Assembly (NCBI RefSeq): GCF_003010495.1
Contig: NZ_CP027570.1
Location: 2,040,001-2,072,000, forward strand
Source of the DNA: Megasphaera elsdenii DSM 20460
Lineage (GTDB): Bacteria > Bacillota > Negativicutes > Veillonellales > Megasphaeraceae
Length of the DNA: 32,000 nucleotides
Reading direction: 5' to 3'
Position 1 is the stretch's first letter. Every line of letters begins with the position of its first letter. A program made the position numbers and the translations under genes. Shown piece by piece: positions 1,868 to 21,439 of the stretch. The notes under the pieces were generated by a model that saw only the letters and a program-made list of their open reading frames with translations, was not told the origin of the DNA and ran no database searches.

Positions 1868-3916
1868 ATGAGCAAAGATTTGTTACTTGAAATCGGTACT
1901 GAAGAAATCCCGGCTCATTATATGCCGAGTATCCTGTCCCAGGTCAAGGACCTGGCCGGGAAATCCTTTGGCGAAGCCCATATCGCCTACGAATCGATCC
2001 GTACCCTCGGTACGCCGCGCCGCATCGCCCTCATCATGAAGGGCGTCGCTGAAAAACAGGCCGACGTATCGGCTAAACATAAAGGCCCGTCGGTCAAGAT
2101 CGCTTACGACGCCGACGGCAATCCGACCAAAGCCGCCATGGGTTTTGCCCGGGGTCAGAAAATCGACGTCAAGGACCTCGTCGTCGAAGACGGCTATGTC
2201 TATGCCAACGTCACCAGTGTCGGCGCTGACACAGCCGGCCTCTTGCCGGACCTTATGAAGGGTATCGTCACGGGCCTCAATTTCCCCAAGAGCATGCACT
2301 GGGGCAGCCTGGACTTCCACTTCGTCCGTCCTATCCGCTGGTTCGTCGCACTCTTCGATAAAGACGTCATCCCCTTTGAACTGGCCAACGTCAAGTCGGG
2401 CAAGGTCAGCCGCGGCCACCGCTTCCTGGGCACGGGTGATTTCGAAATCGAAAGCCCGGCAGCTTACGAAGAAACGTGCAAAGAACACTTCCTCATCGTC
2501 GACCCGGAAGTCCGCAAACAGATGATCCTCGACGGCTTGCAGAAGCTGGCTGACGAAAAGGGCGGTACCATCATCATGGACGACGACCTCTTGGAAGAAG
2601 TCGTCTACCTCGTCGAATATCCGACAGCTCTCTGCGGCGAATTTGATGAAGATTACCTGAAACTGCCGGAAGCGGCCATCATCACGCCGATGAAGGACCA
2701 CCAGCGTTATTTCCCTATGCGCGATAAAGACGGCAAGCTCATGAACCTCTTCCTGACCGTCCGCAACGGCAACGATTACCATCTGGAAACGGTCCAGCAC
2801 GGCAACGAACGCGTCCTCCGCGCCCGCCTGGATGATGCCAAGTTCTTCTTTGAAGAAGATAAGAAACATCACCTCGTCGATTACACGGAAAAACTGAAGA
2901 AAATCGTCTTCCAGGATGGCCTGGGCACGCTTTACGACAAAGCCCAGCGCCTGGAAAAGATTACGGTCTTCCTCAATCATAAACTCGACCTCGGCCTGGA
3001 CGATGCCAAATTACAGCGCGCTTCGCTCCTGGCGAAAGCCGACCTGGCTACGCAGATGGTCATGGAATTTACGGAACTCCAGGGCGTCATGGGCAAGGAA
3101 TATGCCCTCATCGACGGCGAAGATAAAGGCGTTGCCGAAGCCATCAACGAACAGTACCAGCCGCGTTTTGCCGGTGACGTCCTGCCGCAGACCGACATGG
3201 GCAAGGTCTTGGGTATTGCCGATAAATTCGATACCATTACGGGCATGTTCAGCCGCGGCTTCATTCCGACCGGTTCTCAGGACCCCTTCGCCCTGCGCCG
3301 CCAGACCATCGGTATCCTCAACATCCTCATGGATGCCGGCTGGAACCTCAACTGCCATGAAGTCTTTGCCTTCGTCCTCAGCCTCCTCGGCGTAGAAGGG
3401 GAAGACGCAGCCAAAGTCATGGGCCAGCTCGACGATTACTTCACGCTGCGCCTGAAGAACATCTTCCAGGATAAAGGCATGGATTACCACATCATCGACT
3501 GCGTCCTGGCTTCGGATACGCTCAACGCTTACGAAGAAGCCCGCCGTGCCCAGGCCCTCATCGATGCCGACATCATGGGCAAGACCGACCTCTTGCAGGC
3601 CTTCACCCGCGTCAGCAACATGATCAAAGGCGCCGACAATACCGGCGTCAACCCGGACCTCTTCGAAACAGAAGAAGAAAAAGCCCTCTACAGCGCCTGC
3701 CAGGCTATGCAGGTCAACTTGCCGCAGAAATACGCTGTCTATGACTACGAAGGCGTAGCCGAAGTCCTTTCCGAAGGCATTGCGGCTATCAACGATTTCT
3801 TGGACAACGTCCTGGTCATGCACAAAGATGAAGCTGTCAAAGAAAACCGCCTCCATCTCCTGGCCTTGACGTACAGCCTCATCCAGCCCTTAGGCGACAT
3901 CAAGAAATTGGCGTAA
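1868..3916 (+). CDS. glyS: Glycine--tRNA ligase beta subunit
   Basis: 682 aa, starting 1 nt after the glyQ stop. MSKDLLLEIGTEEIPA... is the typical GlyS N-terminus. Confidence 0.95.
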   Translation: MSKDLLLEIGTEEIPAHYMPSILSQVKDLAGKSFGEAHIAYESIRTLGTPRRIALIMKGVAEKQADVSAKHKGPSVKIAYDADGNPTKAAMGFARGQKIDVKDLVVEDGYVYANVTSVGADTAGLLPDLMKGIVTGLNFPKSMHWGSLDFHFVRPIRWFVALFDKDVIPFELANVKSGKVSRGHRFLGTGDFEIESPAAYEETCKEHFLIVDPEVRKQMILDGLQKLADEKGGTIIMDDDLLEEVVYLVEYPTALCGEFDEDYLKLPEAAIITPMKDHQRYFPMRDKDGKLMNLFLTVRNGNDYHLETVQHGNERVLRARLDDAKFFFEEDKKHHLVDYTEKLKKIVFQDGLGTLYDKAQRLEKITVFLNHKLDLGLDDAKLQRASLLAKADLATQMVMEFTELQGVMGKEYALIDGEDKGVAEAINEQYQPRFAGDVLPQTDMGKVLGIADKFDTITGMFSRGFIPTGSQDPFALRRQTIGILNILMDAGWNLNCHEVFAFVLSLLGVEGEDAAKVMGQLDDYFTLRLKNIFQDKGMDYHIIDCVLASDTLNAYEEARRAQALIDADIMGKTDLLQAFTRVSNMIKGADNTGVNPDLFETEEEKALYSACQAMQVNLPQKYAVYDYEGVAEVLSEGIAAINDFLDNVLVMHKDEAVKENRLHLLALTYSLIQPLGDIKKLA

Positions 3917-4204
3917 TTTCGTGGTTAGTGGCTAGTGGTTCGTCTCGGACTCAGATGCCGCTGCGCGGCGACAAATTCAAATGAACAACGACGCTTCGGG
4001 ATACCCTCAGCGCGTAGCGGGCCGCCTTCACAGGACGGCCCCTACGGATGTAGCGCTGCGCGGCGACAGACTCAGGTGGACAACATCGCCTCGAGTAACC
4101 CTCGGCTCGTAAAAAGCAAACTCTCAGTCAGCAGAGCTGGTCCAATGGGCCGGAGAGGTTGATTGTACCTTCGACGACCCGCCGCGAATCCTGTGATAAA
4201 GCGG
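3917..4204. repeat. Mosaic intergenic repeat block R1 (in the glyS 3' UTR)
   Basis: Contains heptad arm GTGGTTA GTGGCTA GTGGTTC (3921-3944), short hairpins at 3954-3972 and 4048-4067, and the GTAG...CTAC palindrome 4014-4045. Positions 4003-4050 are identical to 10780-10827. A collapsed copy of the 164-nt element (termini only) is at 4117-4161, and a partial inverted REP foot at 4174-4190. Confidence 0.85.
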
Positions 4205-5440: not shown

Positions 5441-5645
5441 CCATCGTAGGGGCCGTCCCAAAGGGCGGCCCGCCGTGCCCAACCTCTCAGTCAGCTGCGC
5501 TGACAGCTCCCCTACAAAGGGAGCCAAAGCCTCTCCTCATAGGCCCTTTTTGGTCCGTCAGGTGCTGACCGCAGGGAAGTGCAAGACGGTTGCCAAAACG
5601 GAGAGCTGAGCTAGAGGTGGCCCGAAGGGCCGGAGAGGTTGGTCT
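5441..5645. repeat. Mosaic intergenic repeat block R2
   Basis: The REP-like hairpin GTAGGGGCCGTCCCAAAGGGCGGCCCGC (5446-5473) is identical to 16679-16706 and 19521-19548. It is followed by a full 164-nt element (5479-5642). Confidence 0.85.
5479..5642. repeat. 164-nt element with 10-bp terminal inverted repeats (full copy a)
   Basis: CCAACCTCTC...GAGAGGTTGG. Internal hairpins include GTCAGC-TGC-GCTGAC, GCTCCC-CTACAAA-GGGAGC, GTCAG-GTG-CTGAC and GGCCC-GAA-GGGCC. It matches 10893-11056 at about nine positions in ten, judged by eye. Confidence 0.8.
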
Positions 5646-5790: not shown

Positions 5791-6786
5791 ATGAACACAA
5801 TAGCTGCACTGACAGATAGCATTATAAAAGGATACCGCATCCAACGCGGTGATGATTTATCGATTTTCCTGGAAGCACCTTTAGAGGAGCTGCAGAAGGG
5901 GGCCGGTGCCTTACAGCGCCATTTTTGTGGCAACCATGTCGATTTCTGTACCATCATCAATGGCCGCAGCGGCCGTTGTGGGGAAGACTGCAAATACTGT
6001 GCTCAGGCGGCCTGCCATCATACGGGCTGTGACGAATACGGTTTCTTGCCGAAAGAAGAAATCATCGCCAACGCCAAGGCCAATCAGGATGCCGGCGCCA
6101 ACCGCTTTGCCATCGTCACGTCCGGCCGGGCGCTGACCGGTGCTGATTTTGAAAAGGCCCTGGATGCATACCGCACGATGAAACAGATCCTGCACATCGA
6201 CCTCTGTGCTTCTCACGGCCTGCTCACGCCGGAACAGCTGCACCGCCTCCATGAAACGGGCGTCACCAGTTACCATCACAACATCGAAACGTCGCGGCGT
6301 TTCTTCCCGCACATCTGTACGACCCACACTTATGACGACCGCATCCGCACCATCAAGGCCGCTCAGAAAGAAGGGCTCTGCGTCTGCTCTGGCGGCATCA
6401 TCGGCATGGGGGAAACCTGGGAAGACCGCCTGGATATGGCCATCAGCCTGGCCGAACTGGGCATCCAATCCATTCCCATCAACGCCCTCATGCCTATTCC
6501 CGGCACGCCCTTGGAACATCGGATCCAACTCGACAGCCGCGACATCTTGCGTACGATTGCTTTCTTCCGCTTCATCAACCCGGAAGCCAACATCCGCCTG
6601 GCAGCAGGCCGCAAACTCCTGCCGGAAAACGGCGCTACGGCTCTCCTCAGCGGCGCGTCGGCTTCCATTACGGGCAACATGCTGACCACATCGGGTTCGA
6701 CCATCGTCGAAGACATGGCCATGCTAAAGCGTCTGGGCCTCAGTAACCAGGACTTGGGCGAAAACAGCATGTGCGGACCGAGATGA
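5791..6786 (+). CDS. bioB: Biotin synthase (radical SAM)
   Basis: Contains the CGEDCKYC radical-SAM cysteine triad, plus ...RFAIVTSGR... and ...CSGGIIGMGET... typical of BioB. I prefer ATG 5791 (RBS AAGGAG at 5774-5779). TTG 5785 is an alternative start. Confidence 0.9.
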   Translation: MNTIAALTDSIIKGYRIQRGDDLSIFLEAPLEELQKGAGALQRHFCGNHVDFCTIINGRSGRCGEDCKYCAQAACHHTGCDEYGFLPKEEIIANAKANQDAGANRFAIVTSGRALTGADFEKALDAYRTMKQILHIDLCASHGLLTPEQLHRLHETGVTSYHHNIETSRRFFPHICTTHTYDDRIRTIKAAQKEGLCVCSGGIIGMGETWEDRLDMAISLAELGIQSIPINALMPIPGTPLEHRIQLDSRDILRTIAFFRFINPEANIRLAAGRKLLPENGATALLSGASASITGNMLTTSGSTIVEDMAMLKRLGLSNQDLGENSMCGPR

Positions 6787-7083
6787 TCGTTGATCGTAGT
6801 TCGTTCGTCGTTCATCGCCTCGGACTCAGATGGCGCTGCGCGCCTTTCGACTCAAACTGATAATGCGTCCTCGGGTATCCCCTGCGGTGCATAGCGGGCG
6901 CCCCACGCGGTCGCCCCTACGATACGGGCGATGCTGCGTAATTATGTAACGATCGCTTTTGGGCGATTATAAAAAAATCCACAGCCGTATCCATGACGAA
7001 CAGCACATGCTTTTCCGGCCTGCGGCGCCGCCAGGCGCCATTTCCCTCGACGAACGATGAACGACCTACGACGAACGATACGC
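6782..7083. repeat. Mosaic repeat block R3: heptad arms bracketing REP-like cargo
   Basis: Left arm GTTGATC GTAGTTC GTTCGTC GTTCATC (6789-6816) starts 3 nt after the bioB stop. The inverted arm GACGAAC GATGAAC GACCTAC GACGAAC (7049-7076) is at the other end. Between them are the short hairpin 6828-6844 and the REP-like hairpin 6893-6920 ending CCCCTAC. Confidence 0.8.
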
Positions 7084-10710: not shown

Positions 10711-13206
<2,496 letters not shown>

Positions 13207-13428
13207 ATAAGCAACCTCTCAGTCAGCAGAGCTGCCAGCTCCCCTACAAAGGGAGCCTTAAGCCTCCCCTGATAGGCCCTTTTTGGCCCGTCAGGGGCAG
13301 TTGTACGGATGCGGCGTCCCGCCGCGACAAACACAAACCAATAACGACGACTCGCGTAATCCTCAGCCGTATCGTAATGCCCCTTGCCGGAGGCTATCGT
13401 AGGGGACGGCCAAAGGGCGTCCCGCTCA
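13207..13428. repeat. Mosaic repeat block R5
   Basis: Contains the 5' half of the 164-nt element (13211-13296), a short hairpin (13308-13328) and a REP-like hairpin (13399-13425). Confidence 0.85.
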
Positions 13429-14035: not shown

Positions 14036-14069
14036 TAAGTGTTAAAATTTACGGTGAGGAGTGATTTTT

Positions 14070-14954
14070 TTGAAAGGGATTGTATTAGCTGGTGGTAGTG
14101 GGACGCGGTTGTATCCGCTGACGATGGTGACGTCTAAGCAGTTGTTGCCGGTGTATGATAAGCCCATGATTTATTATCCGTTGTCGACGTTGATGTTGGC
14201 TGGGATTCGGGATATTTTGATTATTTCGACGCCGACGGATTTGCCGAATTTTGAACGGCTCCTGGGAGATGGGTCCCGCTATGGTATTCATTTGAGTTAT
14301 AAGGTGCAGCCGTCACCAGATGGATTGGCTCAGGCTTTTATTCTCGGTGAAGAATTCATTGCCGGGGAACCGTGTGCTATGGTTTTGGGCGATAATATTT
14401 TCTACGGTGCTGGGCTGACCCGTCATTTGCAGCAGGCTGCAGCCAATACGGAAGGGGCTACGGTGTTTGGCTATTATGTCGATGATCCGGAACGGTTCGG
14501 CGTCATTGAATTCGATGAAAAGGGCAAAGCCATTTCTATTGAAGAAAAACCGGCACAGCCAAAGACGAATTACGCTGTTACGGGCCTGTATTTTTATGAT
14601 AAGCATGTTTGTGAATATGCTAAACAAGTCAAGCCGTCGGCGCGGGGCGAACTGGAAATCACGGACTTGAATCAGATGTATTTGGAAAAGGGGAATCTCA
14701 ACGTCGTCACCCTGGGACGGGGTTACGCCTGGCTCGACACGGGAACAGTCAACAGCCTGAGCGAAGCTTCGAACTTCGTCAAGGCTGTAGAAACGAGGGC
14801 CGGCATCCAGATTGCCGCCTTAGAAGACATCGCCTATGGCCACGGCTGGATCGATAAAGAAACCCTCATGGAAAGCGCCATAAAATACGGCAAGAGCCCA
14901 TATGGACAATATTTGAAAAAAGTCGCAGAAGGGAGATTTTTGAAAGATTTGTAA
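14070..14954 (+). CDS. rfbA: Glucose-1-phosphate thymidylyltransferase
   Basis: TTG 14070 lies 8 nt after GAGGAG and gives [18 protein letters not shown]..., the canonical RmlA N-terminus. The ORF opens at 14061. Confidence 0.93.
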
Positions 14955-14957
14955 GGA

Positions 14958-15410
14958 ATGTTTGAGGTTTGATGTTTGATGTGAATGGTGCGAAATTTGT
15001 GAGAAAGGAGTGCTTGGTGTGCCTTTACGATCGTTTCGTGATTTAATCGTTTGGCAAAAAGCAATGCGATTGGCACGAGAGACTTATTGCTTGGTCAAGT
15101 TGTTACCTATGGAGGAACGCTATGCTTTGTCTGATCAAATGAGAAGGGCTGCTGTATCTATTCCTTCTAATATTGCAGAAGGTCAATCGAGAAATACTAA
15201 AAAAGAATTTATTCAGTTTTTGCATATTGCTAAAGGTTCTAATTCAGAATTGATGACACAATTTTTATTGTGCTTGGATTTTGAATATTTGAAAAAAGAA
15301 GAGATTCAAAAGGTTATGAAATTATGCACTGAAATCGATGGACTGCTCGGCGGTCTGATAAAAAGCTTAAAAACTAACCTGGTTTAACATCATACATCAA
15401 ACATCAAACT
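14958..15410 (+). mobile_element. Cassette: four-helix-bundle gene flanked by GTTTGAT-type heptad inverted arms (IVS-like insertion, inferred)
   Basis: The arms are 14960-14987 and 15382-15409. A 16-bp perfect inverted repeat joins 14967-14982 and 15394-15409. The interior is visibly AT-richer than rfbA and rfbB. An empty homologue lies at 591-672. Confidence 0.55.
15019..15387 (+). CDS. Four-helix-bundle protein (23S rRNA intervening-sequence protein family; Avd-like fold)
   Basis: ...FRDLIVWQKAMRLARETY...RRAAVSIPSNIAEGQSRNTKKEFIQFLHIAKGSNSEL... is a clear family signature (PF05635/TIGR02436). I prefer GTG 15019 (8 nt after AAGGAG). The ORF opens at 15010. Confidence 0.9.
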   Translation: MPLRSFRDLIVWQKAMRLARETYCLVKLLPMEERYALSDQMRRAAVSIPSNIAEGQSRNTKKEFIQFLHIAKGSNSELMTQFLLCLDFEYLKKEEIQKVMKLCTEIDGLLGGLIKSLKTNLV

Positions 15411-15459
15411 GCTATTATTTAGGTGATAAAAGTATTATATCGAAAGAGGAGAACGGAGC

Positions 15460-16482: not shown

Positions 16483-16494
16483 AACCCCGGCGCA

Positions 16495-16830
16495 GTTCGC
16501 AGGCCGCCTCGGATTCAGATGCGGCGTTGCCGCGACAATTCATGATTGTATTACGACCATGAATCGTTCGTCATAAATTTTGGCCATGCCTAGGATTCAC
16601 GCGGGACGCCTTAGCAGGACGTCCCCTACGAAATCGCATGCAGGCGATAAAAAAATTATGCGGCTACAAGCCGCAGCTGTAGGGGCCGTCCCAAAGGGCG
16701 GCCCGCTGTGAACAGTTGGAGAGATATCCGGACGGTCAACATGGCACGCAGTATGTTGTTATGCCCCGCTATTCCGAACGGGCGCCCCTACAGTTGTTGG
16801 GATTGTCAATTCATAGAAATTGCGTAGAGG
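16495..16830. repeat. Mosaic repeat block R6
   Basis: Short hairpin 16518-16535, REP-like hairpins 16600-16629 and 16679-16706, and a collapsed one at 16779-16791. About 280 bp (16519-16815) is repeated directly at 19359-19635. Confidence 0.85.
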
Positions 16831-16910
16831 CGATGTGAAATGAACGCAGTTTGCAGGCGGTTGGTCCTATGTCAAGATTTCGGACAAATTAAATTGAGGT
16901 TTTTCGTTTC

Positions 16911-17825
16911 TTAGATTCCCAGACGCATATTATGTTTCTGGAAATCAGCATACAGCTTTTCATAGTCATCCGGTGACATGTAGTTGCAATGGCTATGAAT
17001 GCGTACGGTGTTGTAAAAGGTATTGATGTATTCAAACACCAACAAGTACGCTTGCTGATAATTTTGAATCTTGAAGCGATTGAGCCATTCCCGTTTAATC
17101 AGGGAGTGGAAGGATTCGATGCAGGCATTGTCCCATGGATAGCCTTTCTTCGAATAGCTGCGGCGCATTTGGGATGTCTCCCGAATATATGCCTGCGAAA
17201 CATACTGGCAGCCACGGTCCGAATGGATAACCAACAGCTGTCCGGGTTTCCGGCATTGTTTGGCTTCCTGCAGCATCTTGACGATGCCGGCGACGTCCAG
17301 ATTACGGGCCAGATTCCAGGCGATGATTTTCCTGGAGAACAAATCCATAATGCTTTCCAAATAGACGAAACCTTCAGCTGTCCAGATATAGGTGATGTCG
17401 CTGCACCATACTTGATCCGGTTCTTCAGGATTGAAGCATTCCTGAAGGATATTCACCAGCGCCACGTCAAAGTCACTGTTACGGGTCGTTACGGTGTAAT
17501 GCTTTACCCAGCAGGCCTGAATGCCCATTTGCCGCATGTATACGCCAACTGTGCGTTCAGAGATACTGTCCCCGTTCTGCTGCATAACTTGGGCAATCTT
17601 CGGGGCTCCGTAAATCTGCTTGGAATCGTCGTAGATAGTTTGAATCTTTTTCTTCATCTCCTTGCGGTGCTGGGCCTGTTTCGATGGTTTGCGCGCCGCC
17701 CAGTCATAATATCCTGAAGAAGAAACGTCGAGTTCAGAAAGCACTCCGGACACCGAAAAACGACGTTCTGCCTGATGGGCATTTTCGGCTTCTTCCTGGA
17801 CACTGCGATAGATGGCAATGGTCAT
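16911..17825 (-). CDS. IS3-family transposase OrfB (DDE integrase core)
   Basis: 304 aa. Contains ...WCSDITYI..., ...HSDRGCQYVS... and ...YPWDNACIESFHSLIKRE..., the typical rve/DDE domain. Confidence 0.92.
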   Translation of the reverse strand: MTIAIYRSVQEEAENAHQAERRFSVSGVLSELDVSSSGYYDWAARKPSKQAQHRKEMKKKIQTIYDDSKQIYGAPKIAQVMQQNGDSISERTVGVYMRQMGIQACWVKHYTVTTRNSDFDVALVNILQECFNPEEPDQVWCSDITYIWTAEGFVYLESIMDLFSRKIIAWNLARNLDVAGIVKMLQEAKQCRKPGQLLVIHSDRGCQYVSQAYIRETSQMRRSYSKKGYPWDNACIESFHSLIKREWLNRFKIQNYQQAYLLVFEYINTFYNTVRIHSHCNYMSPDDYEKLYADFQKHNMRLGI

Positions 17826-18103
17826 TTGTCCAGAATGCTGATAGCTTTTTTTAGGACATTCAACGCATCCTTCGCATCCCGCAGTTCACGCTGCAGACGG
17901 GCGATTTCCTTAGCTTCATCCGAAGCATAGTTGCCGGAACCACGATAAGGCATTTCGCCATTGTCCTTCAGCTGCTTTTGCCAACGGGACAAGGTTTGTG
18001 GAGCAATACCTAGATTCGTAGCACAGCCAACCAAGCCGAGTTCCCGATGTTCATGATAATATTTAACTGCGTTGATTTTGAATTCTTTGTTGAATTTTGC
18101 CAT
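17822..18103 (-). CDS. IS3-family transposase OrfA (HTH)
   Basis: 93 aa: MAKFNKEFKINAVKYY...LGIAPQTLSRWQKQ... with a leucine-zipper-like tail. It ends just after the A7 frameshift motif, and the -1 frame continues into OrfB. Confidence 0.9.
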   Translation of the reverse strand: MAKFNKEFKINAVKYYHEHRELGLVGCATNLGIAPQTLSRWQKQLKDNGEMPYRGSGNYASDEAKEIARLQRELRDAKDALNVLKKAISILDK

Positions 18104-18250
18104 ACTGAGGCCTCCTTAGTTAATCCTATTGTACCACCATTAGGAACCTCAGTTTGACTTGTCCTATTTATATGCTAACACCAGGTCTGTGGTCTGCGTT
18201 TACCTGATAACGATGGTGTAATAAGAAAGTATGAAAGGGGAATCCATCCT

Positions 18251-19171
18251 ATGAAAATCTTTGTAACGGGTGTGAATGGCCAGTTGGGTCATGATGTGAT
18301 GAATGAATTGATTCGCCGCGGTCATATAGCGGTGGGCAGTGGTTCGAAGGCGGTGTACAGTGGTATGGCTGATGGGACGGCAGTGACGACGGCGCCGTAT
18401 GTGTCTTTGGATATTACCGATGCTGATGCCGTACGGCGGGTCATTACGGACGTGCAGCCCGATGCGGTCATTCACTGTGCGGCTTGGACGGCTGTCGATT
18501 TGGCCGAAGGTGATGACAAAGTGGCTCAGGTCCGGGCCGTCAATGCCGGCGGGACACAGCATATTGCCGATGTCTGCAAAGAACTGGACTGCAAGATGCT
18601 CTATCTCAGTACGGATTATGTGTTCAACGGTCAGGGAACGGAGCCGTGGCAGCCGGACTGCAAGGATTACCAGCCTCTCAATGTCTATGGTCAGACGAAG
18701 CTCGAAGGTGAACTGGCTGTGTCGCAGACGCTGGAAAAATATTTCATCGTCCGTATCGCCTGGGTATTCGGTCAGAATGGCAAGAATTTCGTTAAGACCA
18801 TGCTCAATGTCGGCAAGACGCACGATACGGTTCGCGTCGTCAATGACCAGATTGGCACGCCGACGTATACCTTTGATTTGGCCCGGCTGCTGGTGGATAT
18901 GATTGAAACTGAAAAATACGGCTATTACCATGCGACCAACGAAGGCGGCTACATTTCCTGGTACGACTTTACCTGTGAAATCTATCGCCAGGCCGGCTAC
19001 AAGACAAAAGTCCTTCCTGTCACGACGGAAGAATACGGCCTGTCCAAAGCCAAACGGCCCTTCAATTCCCGCTTGGATAAAAGCAAACTCGCCGCCAATG
19101 GCTTCCGGCCGCTGCCTGACTGGAAAGATGCCTTGAAGCGGTATTTGGAAAATTTAGTGTCTCGTGGCTAG
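18251..19171 (+). CDS. rfbD: dTDP-4-dehydrorhamnose reductase
   Basis: 306 aa. MKIFVTGVNGQLGHDV...STDYVFNG...YGQTKLEGE is RmlD-like. The last codons and the TAG stop lie inside heptad arm 19157-19191. Confidence 0.93.
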   Translation: MKIFVTGVNGQLGHDVMNELIRRGHIAVGSGSKAVYSGMADGTAVTTAPYVSLDITDADAVRRVITDVQPDAVIHCAAWTAVDLAEGDDKVAQVRAVNAGGTQHIADVCKELDCKMLYLSTDYVFNGQGTEPWQPDCKDYQPLNVYGQTKLEGELAVSQTLEKYFIVRIAWVFGQNGKNFVKTMLNVGKTHDTVRVVNDQIGTPTYTFDLARLLVDMIETEKYGYYHATNEGGYISWYDFTCEIYRQAGYKTKVLPVTTEEYGLSKAKRPFNSRLDKSKLAANGFRPLPDWKDALKRYLENLVSRG

Positions 19172-19670
19172 TGGTTCGTGGCTCGTTATGGACTCAGATG
19201 CCGCTATGCGGCGATGGATTCAAAGTGACAACGACGCTTCGGGATAACCCTCAGCGCGTAGCGGGCCGCCAGCCTCTGCTGTCCGTTTTGGCAGCCGTCC
19301 TGCGCCTCCCGTTGGTCGTCACTTGACGGGCCAAAAAGGCTTACAGGACGTCCCCTACGGATGCCGTTGCGCGGCAACATTTCATAATTGTATTACGACC
19401 GTGTGCTACTCGTCATAAATTCTGGCCATGCCCAGGATTCACGCGGGACGCCTTATCAGGACGTCCCCTACGAAATCGCATGCAGGCGATAAAAAAATTA
19501 TGCGGCTGCAAGTCGCAGCTGTAGGGGCCGTCCCAAAGGGCGGCCCGCTGTGAACAGGTGGAAATTATGCCTCGTTCTTCCGAACGGGCGCCCCACGTGG
19601 TCGCCCATACAGTTGTTGGGGACTGTCAATTCCCAGGAGTCGTGGCGGGCCGCCTGCGGTCCTGTGGACC
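19157..19670. repeat. Mosaic repeat block R7
   Basis: Heptad arm GTGTCTC GTGGCTA GTGGTTC GTGGCTC GTTATGG (19157-19191), short hairpins 19197-19213 and 19360-19377, and a split GTAG...CTAC palindrome (19258-19357) with an inverted 164-nt-element fragment in its loop. REP-like hairpins are at 19442-19471, 19521-19548 and 19586-19610. Confidence 0.88.
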
Positions 19671-21302: not shown

Positions 21303-21368
21303 GTTTTTGCTTTATAGTTTGTAGTACAGAGTCTGTAGTTTACAGAAGATGACTTTTAAATTTAACAC

Positions 21369-21403
21369 CATCTACTAACCACTAACTGCTAGCCACTAAC
21401 CAC
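21369..21403 (-). repeat. Orphan heptad arm (GT-type on the minus strand)
   Basis: The minus strand reads GTGGTTA GTGGCTA GCAGTTA GTGGTTA GTAGATG. Its first 15 nt are identical to arm 3921-3935. It lies just downstream (minus sense) of the 21441-22310 gene and its terminator. Confidence 0.75.
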
Positions 21404-21405
21404 TT

Positions 21406-21439
21406 AAAAGGGCTTGTCGCATGTGCGACAAGCCCTTTT
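21406..21439. terminator. Bidirectional Rho-independent terminator between convergent genes
   Basis: Perfect 11-bp stem GGGCTTGTCGC (21410-21420) / GCGACAAGCCC (21425-21435), flanked by AAAA and TTTT. Confidence 0.85.

Follow-up and report, generated by a model that had tools for sequence, protein, structure and literature searches.

The unit between rfbA and rfbB

The window (the whole 32,000-nt stretch of Megasphaera elsdenii DSM 20460 analysed here, in whose coordinates all positions are given unless a related locus, numbered L001 and so on, is named) holds a compact gene-bearing unit, 14957-15412, in the spacer between two genes of the rfb operon. The features at this junction are as follows.

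14061-14954, plus strand: rfbA (glucose-1-phosphate thymidylyltransferase), the upstream host gene; PF00483, E 3e-76
14957-14985, plus strand: left (5') heptad array, about four units of GTTTGAG/GTTTGAT
14981-14998, plus strand: sub-terminal segment GTGAATGGTGCGAAATTT, from a repeat search (family D11) and global alignment
15004-15010, plus strand: Shine-Dalgarno sequence AAAGGAG, 8 nt 5' of the GTG, read from the sequence
15019-15387, plus strand: four-helix-bundle protein gene (PF05635/TIGR02436), 122 aa, GTG start
15384-15412, plus strand: right (3') heptad array, complement of the left array, overlapping the stop codon
15460-16482, plus strand: rfbB (dTDP-glucose 4,6-dehydratase), the downstream host gene; PF16363 and PF01370

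The first-pass annotation, made without database searches, had recognised ORF 15019-15387 as a member of the four-helix-bundle family. Profile searches agree, with scores above the curated thresholds for both PF05635 (E 5e-40, 136 bits against a cut-off of 33.8) and TIGR02436 (131 bits against a cut-off of 24); the protein also matches PDB 2GSC (XCC0516) at E 4.5e-33. The gene is, as had been remarked, AT-richer than its rfb neighbours (GC 0.35, versus 0.49 for rfbA, 0.52 for rfbB and 0.52 for the whole window). Its product is 98-99% identical among M. elsdenii assemblies and metagenome contigs (entries named 'four helix bundle protein'), the two commonest sequences occurring on 218 and 831 contigs. 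PF05635 is a large family, of 22,767 clusters at 50% identity, in which the polar motif RRA..S.PSNIAEGQ.R is very strongly conserved; both solved relatives crystallised with five chains per entry. The domain was functionally uncharacterised as of a 2024 survey (PMC11270868), and PADLOC models gave no defence-protein match to the protein at E 0.01 or better.

The arms had been described as complementary brackets around the gene with a 16-bp perfect match. That match is real, 14967-14982 pairing with 15394-15409 at 16 of 16 positions, and it extends to a wider pairing of 14960-14985 with 15384-15409 (26 nt at 88%); the right arm does run over the stop codon of the four-helix-bundle gene, at 15385-15387. 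The unit thus has terminal inverted repeats that can form a long stem, as intervening sequences (IVSs) do. The stem scores 17, where the maximum among 300 shuffles is 13, and the minimum-free-energy fold of a 481-nt unit pairs the arms under both RNA and DNA parameters. As RNA, the arm duplex has an energy of -29 kcal/mol in the window and of -39 to -40 kcal/mol in other strains. The heptad motif has seven matches in the window against 0.07 expected, all at this cassette or at the gene-less hairpin 591-672 described below.

Variation at the rfb junctions among strains

The order rfbA, four-helix-bundle gene, rfbB is found in all eight further M. elsdenii loci, and also in other Megasphaera species and in Acidaminococcus hominis. 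Heptad number varies among the M. elsdenii strains, from three to six in the left array and from three to four in the right. On the plus strand from rfbA to rfbB we detected no promoter-like or terminator-like site; with no such site of its own, the cassette is probably expressed from the rfb operon transcript.

An empty rfbA-rfbB junction, which the first-pass annotation had proposed to look for across strains, was not found: every Megasphaera and Acidaminococcus locus retrieved is occupied, and recent mobility at this junction is thus without support. This is one of the outcomes that the annotation had listed as counting against its idea. What the comparison revealed instead is allelic replacement, of ancient date. 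In strain MSK.21.52 (L009), RfbA and RfbB are 99% identical to those of the window, whereas the cassette protein is only 75% identical, and the L009 cassette (2935-3448) has its own arms, of GTTTGGC type. Against window positions 14955-15459, the L009 sequence has one breakpoint within the final ~25 nt of rfbA and the other within the initial ~40 nt of rfbB. The two cassette alleles differ with a pN of 0.16 and a pS of 0.88, the latter saturated, so the four-helix-bundle protein is under purifying selection; dS between the window and L009 is 0.26 in rfbA and 0.16 in rfbB. Saturated synonymous divergence inside flanks that are 99% identical means either that the cassette was exchanged in one piece or that the polymorphism is an old one. 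M. elsdenii has two very old cassette alleles at one junction.

The next junction of the operon, rfbB-rfbD, is more variable. In L005 it holds a second four-helix-bundle gene (11644-12003), 54% identical to the first and accompanied by heptads of the type CAGCNGC. This second cassette is intact in L207 (4549-4914) and in L209-L212, is broken into two ORF fragments in L010 (3293-3692), and is represented in L208 (4550-4920) by a similar stretch in which no gene was called. The rfbB-rfbD spacer of the window and of most strains is a non-coding mosaic between CGCAGNN arms. In L213 (4479-4569) the spacer measures just 90 nt, and its solo array, of left type with four AGTTTGT units, lacks both partner arm and cargo; it could be what is left of a cassette, or the start of one. 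A tblastn search of the other rfb spacers of the window found no relics of a four-helix-bundle gene.

Heptad arrays throughout the protein family

For a family sample we took one genome per species, giving 80 loci with proteins 48-75% identical, 77 of them with full flanks, from Bacteroidota, Bacillota, Chloroflexota, Planctomycetota, Verrucomicrobiota, Spirochaetota, Fibrobacterota, Acidobacteriota and other phyla. A heptad array lies within 160 nt of the gene in 71 of the 77 relatives, against 32 of 400 control placements in the same loci (8%), and arrays lie on both sides of the gene in 47 of the 77, against none of the 400. It had been asked whether other copies of the gene are flanked by heptad inverted arms, and for most of the relatives sampled the answer is that they are. 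Among more distant relatives (33-47% identity, from contigs of viral collections) arrays were found in about 20 of 31.

The arrangement of these arrays is regular. Arrays have a median of five units per arm (with a detection threshold of three units); the median distance from the end of the left array to the start codon is 20 nt, and in 36 of 64 loci the right array runs over the end of the ORF. Ungapped complementary stems are 31 bp long in the median and 85% paired. The gene-proximal left arrays are of AG-only type in 40 loci and CT-only in four, and the right arrays are CT-only in 49 loci and AG-only in none. Polarity is therefore fixed, with (AG[T/G]NNNN)n lying 5' of the gene and its complement 3'. 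The consensus unit is A-G-[T/G]-N-N-T-Y, with a conserved AG[T/G] anchor and four variable positions; GATGTTT, the main unit in Megasphaera, deviates from the usual AG anchor, and the first unit, AGGTTTG, conforms. The heptad type differs among loci but is common to both arms of one cassette: the left and right consensus heptads are the same in 17 of 43 loci (0.9 when arms are re-paired across loci) and differ by at most one position in 32 (5.2 when re-paired). The association with heptad arrays, their fixed polarity and the sharing of heptad type between arms hold throughout the family as sampled.

The genes also share a position. In 51 of 67 loci the gene and both its neighbours read the same way, the gene forming a sense wedge with spacers of 10-100 nt; for the upstream neighbour by itself, orientation agrees in 66 of 73. 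These neighbours belong to 139 Pfam families and include tRNA synthetases, ATP synthase subunits and ABC transporters. The earlier description of the window unit as sitting in an mRNA operon 'instead of an rRNA' is misleading, because the sense wedge in an mRNA operon is the norm of the family; at gathering threshold, Rfam detected rRNA in none of 15 ORF-poor related loci.

From these regularities we define a class, the heptad-armed PF05635 cassette, as a PF05635 gene with a G/T-rich array 5' and its complement 3', each within 160 nt, the gene lying in sense orientation in an operon spacer. The window unit has the arrays on both sides within that distance, the polarity and the sense placement in an operon spacer; it is one instance of an architecture that extends across the sampled family and many phyla. 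We found no published account, in the literature searched, of a link between PF05635 and heptamer arrays beyond the Coxiella IVS (PMC4990558), and none of the family-wide association.

Base pairing within the arms was examined in 71 stems. No evidence of selection on RNA base pairing emerged: the mismatches have no excess of G.U (65 G.U versus 81 A.C), and the order of heptad variants in one arm gives no signal of being mirrored in the other, so selection on exact RNA pairing is unsupported. These data fit arms that slip independently on each side while being homogenised in type, and fit a pairing made register-tolerant by the periodicity of the arms. They also leave room for the arrays to be binding sites instead of stems.

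Gene-less hairpins

Two elements in the window resemble the cassette and lack a gene.

591-673, no strand assigned: gene-less hairpin with GTTTGAT arms and the conserved loop TTTTAAATTT; fold z = -5.8
21304-21409, no strand assigned: hairpin-type element with loop GATGACTTTTAAATTTAAC..CCATC, as in the gene-less hairpins, and AGTNNNN/NNNNACT arms

The first of these has on one side the stop of an ORF truncated by the start of the window, and on the other a terminator-like hairpin. The cassette arms had been reported to recur here, at 591-672, with no gene between them, and they do, the left arm having 15 nt and the right arm 17 nt (AACATCATACATCAAAC) in common with those of the cassette. The sub-terminal segment GTGAATGGTGCGAAATTT (14981-14998) recurs in turn at the edge of the loop in the gene-less hairpins (GTGGATGGTTTTAAATTT). 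When metagenomes were scanned by pattern, the Megasphaera hairpin was recovered with GTTTGAN arms and GATGG(C/T)TTTTAAATTT as its loop; copies in gut metagenomes have ~12 different flanks, point either way and are often next to terminators, and one 150-kb contig carries three of them. Hairpin and cassette match at their ends over more than the heptads, through GTG[A/G]ATGGT...AAATTT at the left end and over 24 nt at the right. The ends of gene-bearing and gene-less copies are thus homologous.

In the second element, 21304-21409, the arms are poorly complementary and the fold is not better than that of shuffles, yet the AGT/ACT arrays are still phased. It belongs to a variable site after a HAD gene, at which L003, L005, L007 and L008 have a GTTTGAG-armed hairpin, L004 and the window have the same loop with AGTNNNN/NNNNACT arms, and L002 has nothing. 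We rejected L002 as a virgin empty site: a 17-nt direct repeat of terminator sequence borders the indel, and a deletion between its two copies fits better.

The clearest link between the two forms is in L020, a locus of the Clostridia, where a gene-less hairpin lies one spacer from the cassette, in the opposite orientation. Of the neighbouring cassette it retains both arms, the inner stem (which is not periodic), the final ~20 nt of the ORF and the untranslated 3' stretch, and is for these reasons an internal-deletion derivative. Further loci have nearby hairpins with the heptad type of their cassette. The first-pass proposal, that the gene-less hairpins are derivatives of a gene-bearing, autonomous unit, can be kept in its first half, in view of the common ends and of the clear internal deletion in L020; autonomy of the gene-bearing unit is speculative, and so is the suggested action of the protein on the stems.

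Two further observations concern sequences near such elements. A 31-nt stretch at 550-580 is 77% identical to 14864-14894 (...AAAATACGGCAAG); both lie in coding sequence just upstream of the two GTTTGAT elements, at the 3' end of the preceding gene, and the likeness is probably due to chance. In L078, nested heptad hairpins of AGTACTC/GAGTACT lie at 3355-3690, 3' of an acidobacterial four-helix-bundle gene, and each encloses copies of a GC-rich ~60-nt unit; Acido-Lenti-1 RNAs in the same locus (479-524 and 1691-1736) were considered and set aside as unrelated GC hairpins.

Comparison with known elements

The comparison with rRNA IVSs drawn by the first-pass annotation is supported and can be generalised. 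The 23S IVS of Coxiella burnetii comprises a PF05635 ORF and a 28-bp terminal stem, carries two or three tandem GACAGAT heptamers (depending on strain) just upstream of the ORF, and is cut by RNase III in the stem at the first repeat (PMC4990558). The 23S IVSs of C. burnetii and Leptospira and the Megasphaera unit are alike in protein family, in terminal inverted repeats, in a stem of ~28 bp and in tandem heptamers whose number depends on the strain, and sizes are also alike (~430 nt for the Coxiella IVS and ~455 nt for the Megasphaera unit). They differ in that the IVS sits in helix 45 or 25 of 23S rRNA whereas the Megasphaera unit lies between two genes of an mRNA operon; in that the Megasphaera protein is under purifying selection whereas the Coxiella ORF is reported to be decaying and not expressed; and in that RNase III cleavage, demonstrated for the Coxiella IVS, is only predicted for the Megasphaera unit. 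An IVS of this kind is recognised by its location inside a 23S rRNA gene, in helix 9, 25 or 45. The unit 14957-15412 is flanked by rfbA and rfbB, and Rfam at gathering threshold detected no family in the whole window, leaving the hairpins uncovered and finding no rRNA; on location, then, the unit is not an rRNA IVS.

Arrays of tandem heptamers have also been described in other bacteria, reportedly including the STRR arrays of cyanobacteria. The GGGAATC repeats of Xanthomonas include 70-75 convergent inverted pairs (PMC4692102), and TAACTGA in Beggiatoaceae forms another heptamer repeat array (PMC4679880). STRR, GGGAATC and TAACTGA arrays resemble ours in being intergenic, in repeating a heptamer in tandem from a few to dozens of times and in varying among strains. 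For Xanthomonas campestris, the published table of GGGAATC arrays places one of four units between bccP (XCC0517) and XCC0516, where it runs over the start of XCC0516, which encodes the PDB 2GSC protein (PMC4692102 supplement). A term search of PMC4692102 and PMC4679880 found no mention of S23, IVS or four-helix. Unlike the published heptamer arrays, those described here are tied to a gene, with fixed polarity and a heptad type shared between arms.

The dispersed, gene-less hairpins with the ends of a gene-bearing unit, including one internal-deletion derivative, also recall MITEs and REPINs, as does their presence or absence between strains. Terminal inverted repeats combined with dispersed copies, the hallmark of MITEs, are both found here, the gene-less form having ~12 distinct flanks. 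Unlike MITEs and REPINs, these elements come with no transposase of a known class, and their ends are periodic arrays, not unique terminal inverted repeats. We saw no target-site duplication at the hairpin borders and no cognate transposase, the only ORF being the four-helix-bundle gene.

Interpretation of unit 14957-15412

The anatomy of the unit is plain: a PF05635/TIGR02436 gene with its own ribosome-binding site is packaged between inverted heptad arrays. Since the same packaging surrounds most relatives, in many phyla, it looks like a widespread selfish gene cassette, and on balance we favour reading the window unit as a resident cassette of this kind, of IVS type, riding the rfb transcript. 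Co-transcribed with rfb, its arms would pair in the transcript to form a 16-31-bp stem that, being periodic, would tolerate register shifts. RNase III may then cut this stem, as it does that of the Coxiella IVS, and such cleavage would release a small mRNA and part rfbA from the rfbB segment. The unit would spread, or would once have spread, whole, with its arms included; on this reading the gene is carried along in the narrow gaps of operons that are unrelated to one another, and the hairpins that have its ends but no gene are deletion derivatives of the unit. Most likely the unit as a whole acts like a selfish element, mobile now or formerly.

A possible but doubtful alternative is that the arrays are binding sites at the ends of a mobile element, where a pentameric four-helix-bundle protein recognises one heptad per subunit. 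The target would be single-stranded RNA or DNA, with the gene-bearing unit as the autonomous form and the gene-less hairpin as the non-autonomous one. The conserved AG[T/G] anchor beside four variable positions speaks for recognition of the heptad itself, and the pairing data (no wobble signal, no mirrored heptad order) agree with it, as does element 21304-21409, which keeps phased arrays while unpaired. The paralogous cassettes of L005 carry different heptads (GTTTGAT and CAGCNGC), so that arms appear cassette-specific; the deletion derivative in L020 stands at a second site in the opposite orientation; and the very strong conservation of RRA..S.PSNIAEGQ.R also counts in its favour. The median of five units per arm recalls the five chains per entry of the solved relatives, although the three-unit detection threshold truncates this figure. 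Against binding sites, nucleic-acid binding by the subfamily is putative, the 120-aa helical bundle shows no recognisable nuclease or recombinase motif, no target-site duplications were seen, and the arms are after all still 85% complementary over a median of 31 bp.

It is improbable that the association is a coincidence, the arms being a copy of a REP/MITE-like hairpin of Megasphaera into whose loop the gene fell by chance. The gene-less hairpin does occur at ~12 other sites, and the spacers of the window are full of heptad arrays with non-coding cargo. Chance is contradicted by the enrichment of arrays (relatives in other phyla, with other heptads, have arms at 71 of 77 loci versus 8% of controls), by polarity fixed relative to the gene, by the heptad type shared between the two arms (32 of 43 loci differing by at most one, versus 5.2 when re-paired), and by the alternative allele at the rfbA-rfbB junction, which has GTTTGGC arms of its own.

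Less probable still is a dedicated role of the gene, as component or regulator, in dTDP-rhamnose or O-antigen synthesis, for the sake of which it would be kept in the rfb operon. The conserved order from Megasphaera to Acidaminococcus would fit such a role, as would the second copy between rfbB and rfbD in several strains and species. Homologues, however, adjoin 139 different Pfam families, synonymous divergence between the alleles is saturated while the flanking genes are 99% identical, and the second copy is present, absent or a pseudogene depending on the strain.

That the gene is a stray Avd accessory gene of a diversity-generating retroelement (DGR), whose Avd is a homologous four-helix bundle reportedly assembling as a pentamer, is hardly credible, since its weak homology (PF22296, E 3e-5; NF033474, E 3e-9) is below the curated cut-offs (25 versus 40 bits and 37 versus 80 bits), it lies between rfbA and rfbB, neither the window nor the related Megasphaera loci have a reverse transcriptase or a template/variable repeat pair next to it, and the called genes of eight related loci contain no reverse-transcriptase domain; both tests of Avd identity thus failed, and gene context contradicts it.

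Returning to the selfish cassette, we advance a broader proposal only tentatively, and ourselves consider it rather unlikely in its full form. PF05635 proteins together with inverted heptad arrays may constitute an unrecognised class of selfish elements across many phyla, in which a pentamer would bind about five heptads and be needed for spread or maintenance, the gene-less hairpins being non-autonomous. Such a class could account for protein-coding rRNA IVSs, for many heptamer arrays (STRR, GGGAATC) and for thousands of operon-wedged genes. The origin of rRNA IVSs and the excess of heptamer repeats in bacteria are old open questions, and they are here linked by one easily recognised architecture, consisting of the gene, inverted heptad arrays, a sense-oriented operon wedge and gene-less derivatives. 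The same architecture marks a place where transcripts of operons such as rfb, atp and acc are likely to be broken post-transcriptionally.

Other heptad elements and mosaic repeats in the window

The cassette and 591-672, the heptad sites named by the first-pass annotation, are both real, but at least five more arrays in the window had been overlooked. Besides 21304-21409, they include the following.

3916-3944, plus strand: heptad array CGTGGTT/AGTGGCT, directly 3' of an ORF stop and leading into a mosaic repeat
6781-7073, plus strand: heptad-armed intergenic element of CGTTCAT type, with arms at 6781-6817 and 7044-7073 and non-coding cargo
16490-16508, plus strand: left CGCAGNN arm of an element in the rfbB-rfbD spacer with a non-coding mosaic repeat as cargo
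16845-16861, plus strand: first part of the right arm of the rfbB-rfbD element, split by an IS3-family insertion and resuming at 18184-18201
19153-19187, plus strand: heptad array CGTGGCT/AGTGGTT, overlapping the rfbD stop and opening a 590-nt mosaic spacer

The split right arm of the rfbB-rfbD element was recognised by comparison with L003, L004 and L008, which lack the insertion. The IS3-family element that interrupts this CGCAGNN arm occupies 16862-18183, with ORFs at 16911-17825 and 17822-18103 on the minus strand. It ends in TG...CA and is flanked by a 3-bp target duplication, GGT, at 16859-16861 and 18184-18186; other strains are without it.

Nested mosaic repeats build the intergenic spacers, often directly after a heptad array. 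They lie at 3941-4139, 5446-5641, 6823-6886, 10718-11055, 13206-13425, 16518-16720 and 19191-19594, and have no Rfam match. A 64-nt mosaic unit (GACTCAGATGCCGCTGCGCGGCGAC...) has seven copies in the window, and the mosaic motif GTAGGGGCCGTCCCAAAGGGCGGCCCGC may pair at long range with GCCCCTAC. A mosaic unit of ~240 nt is tandemly duplicated in L001, L004, L007 and L008.

The region upstream of rfbA (~1-8700 in L001-L008) differs in gene content by strain and includes apparent defence genes: an OLD-family ATPase/TOPRIM with a UvrD helicase, SMODS with S_4TM, a KAP NTPase, and AAA_15/DUF3226. A long ORF, 11053-13206, takes this place upstream of rfbA in the window.
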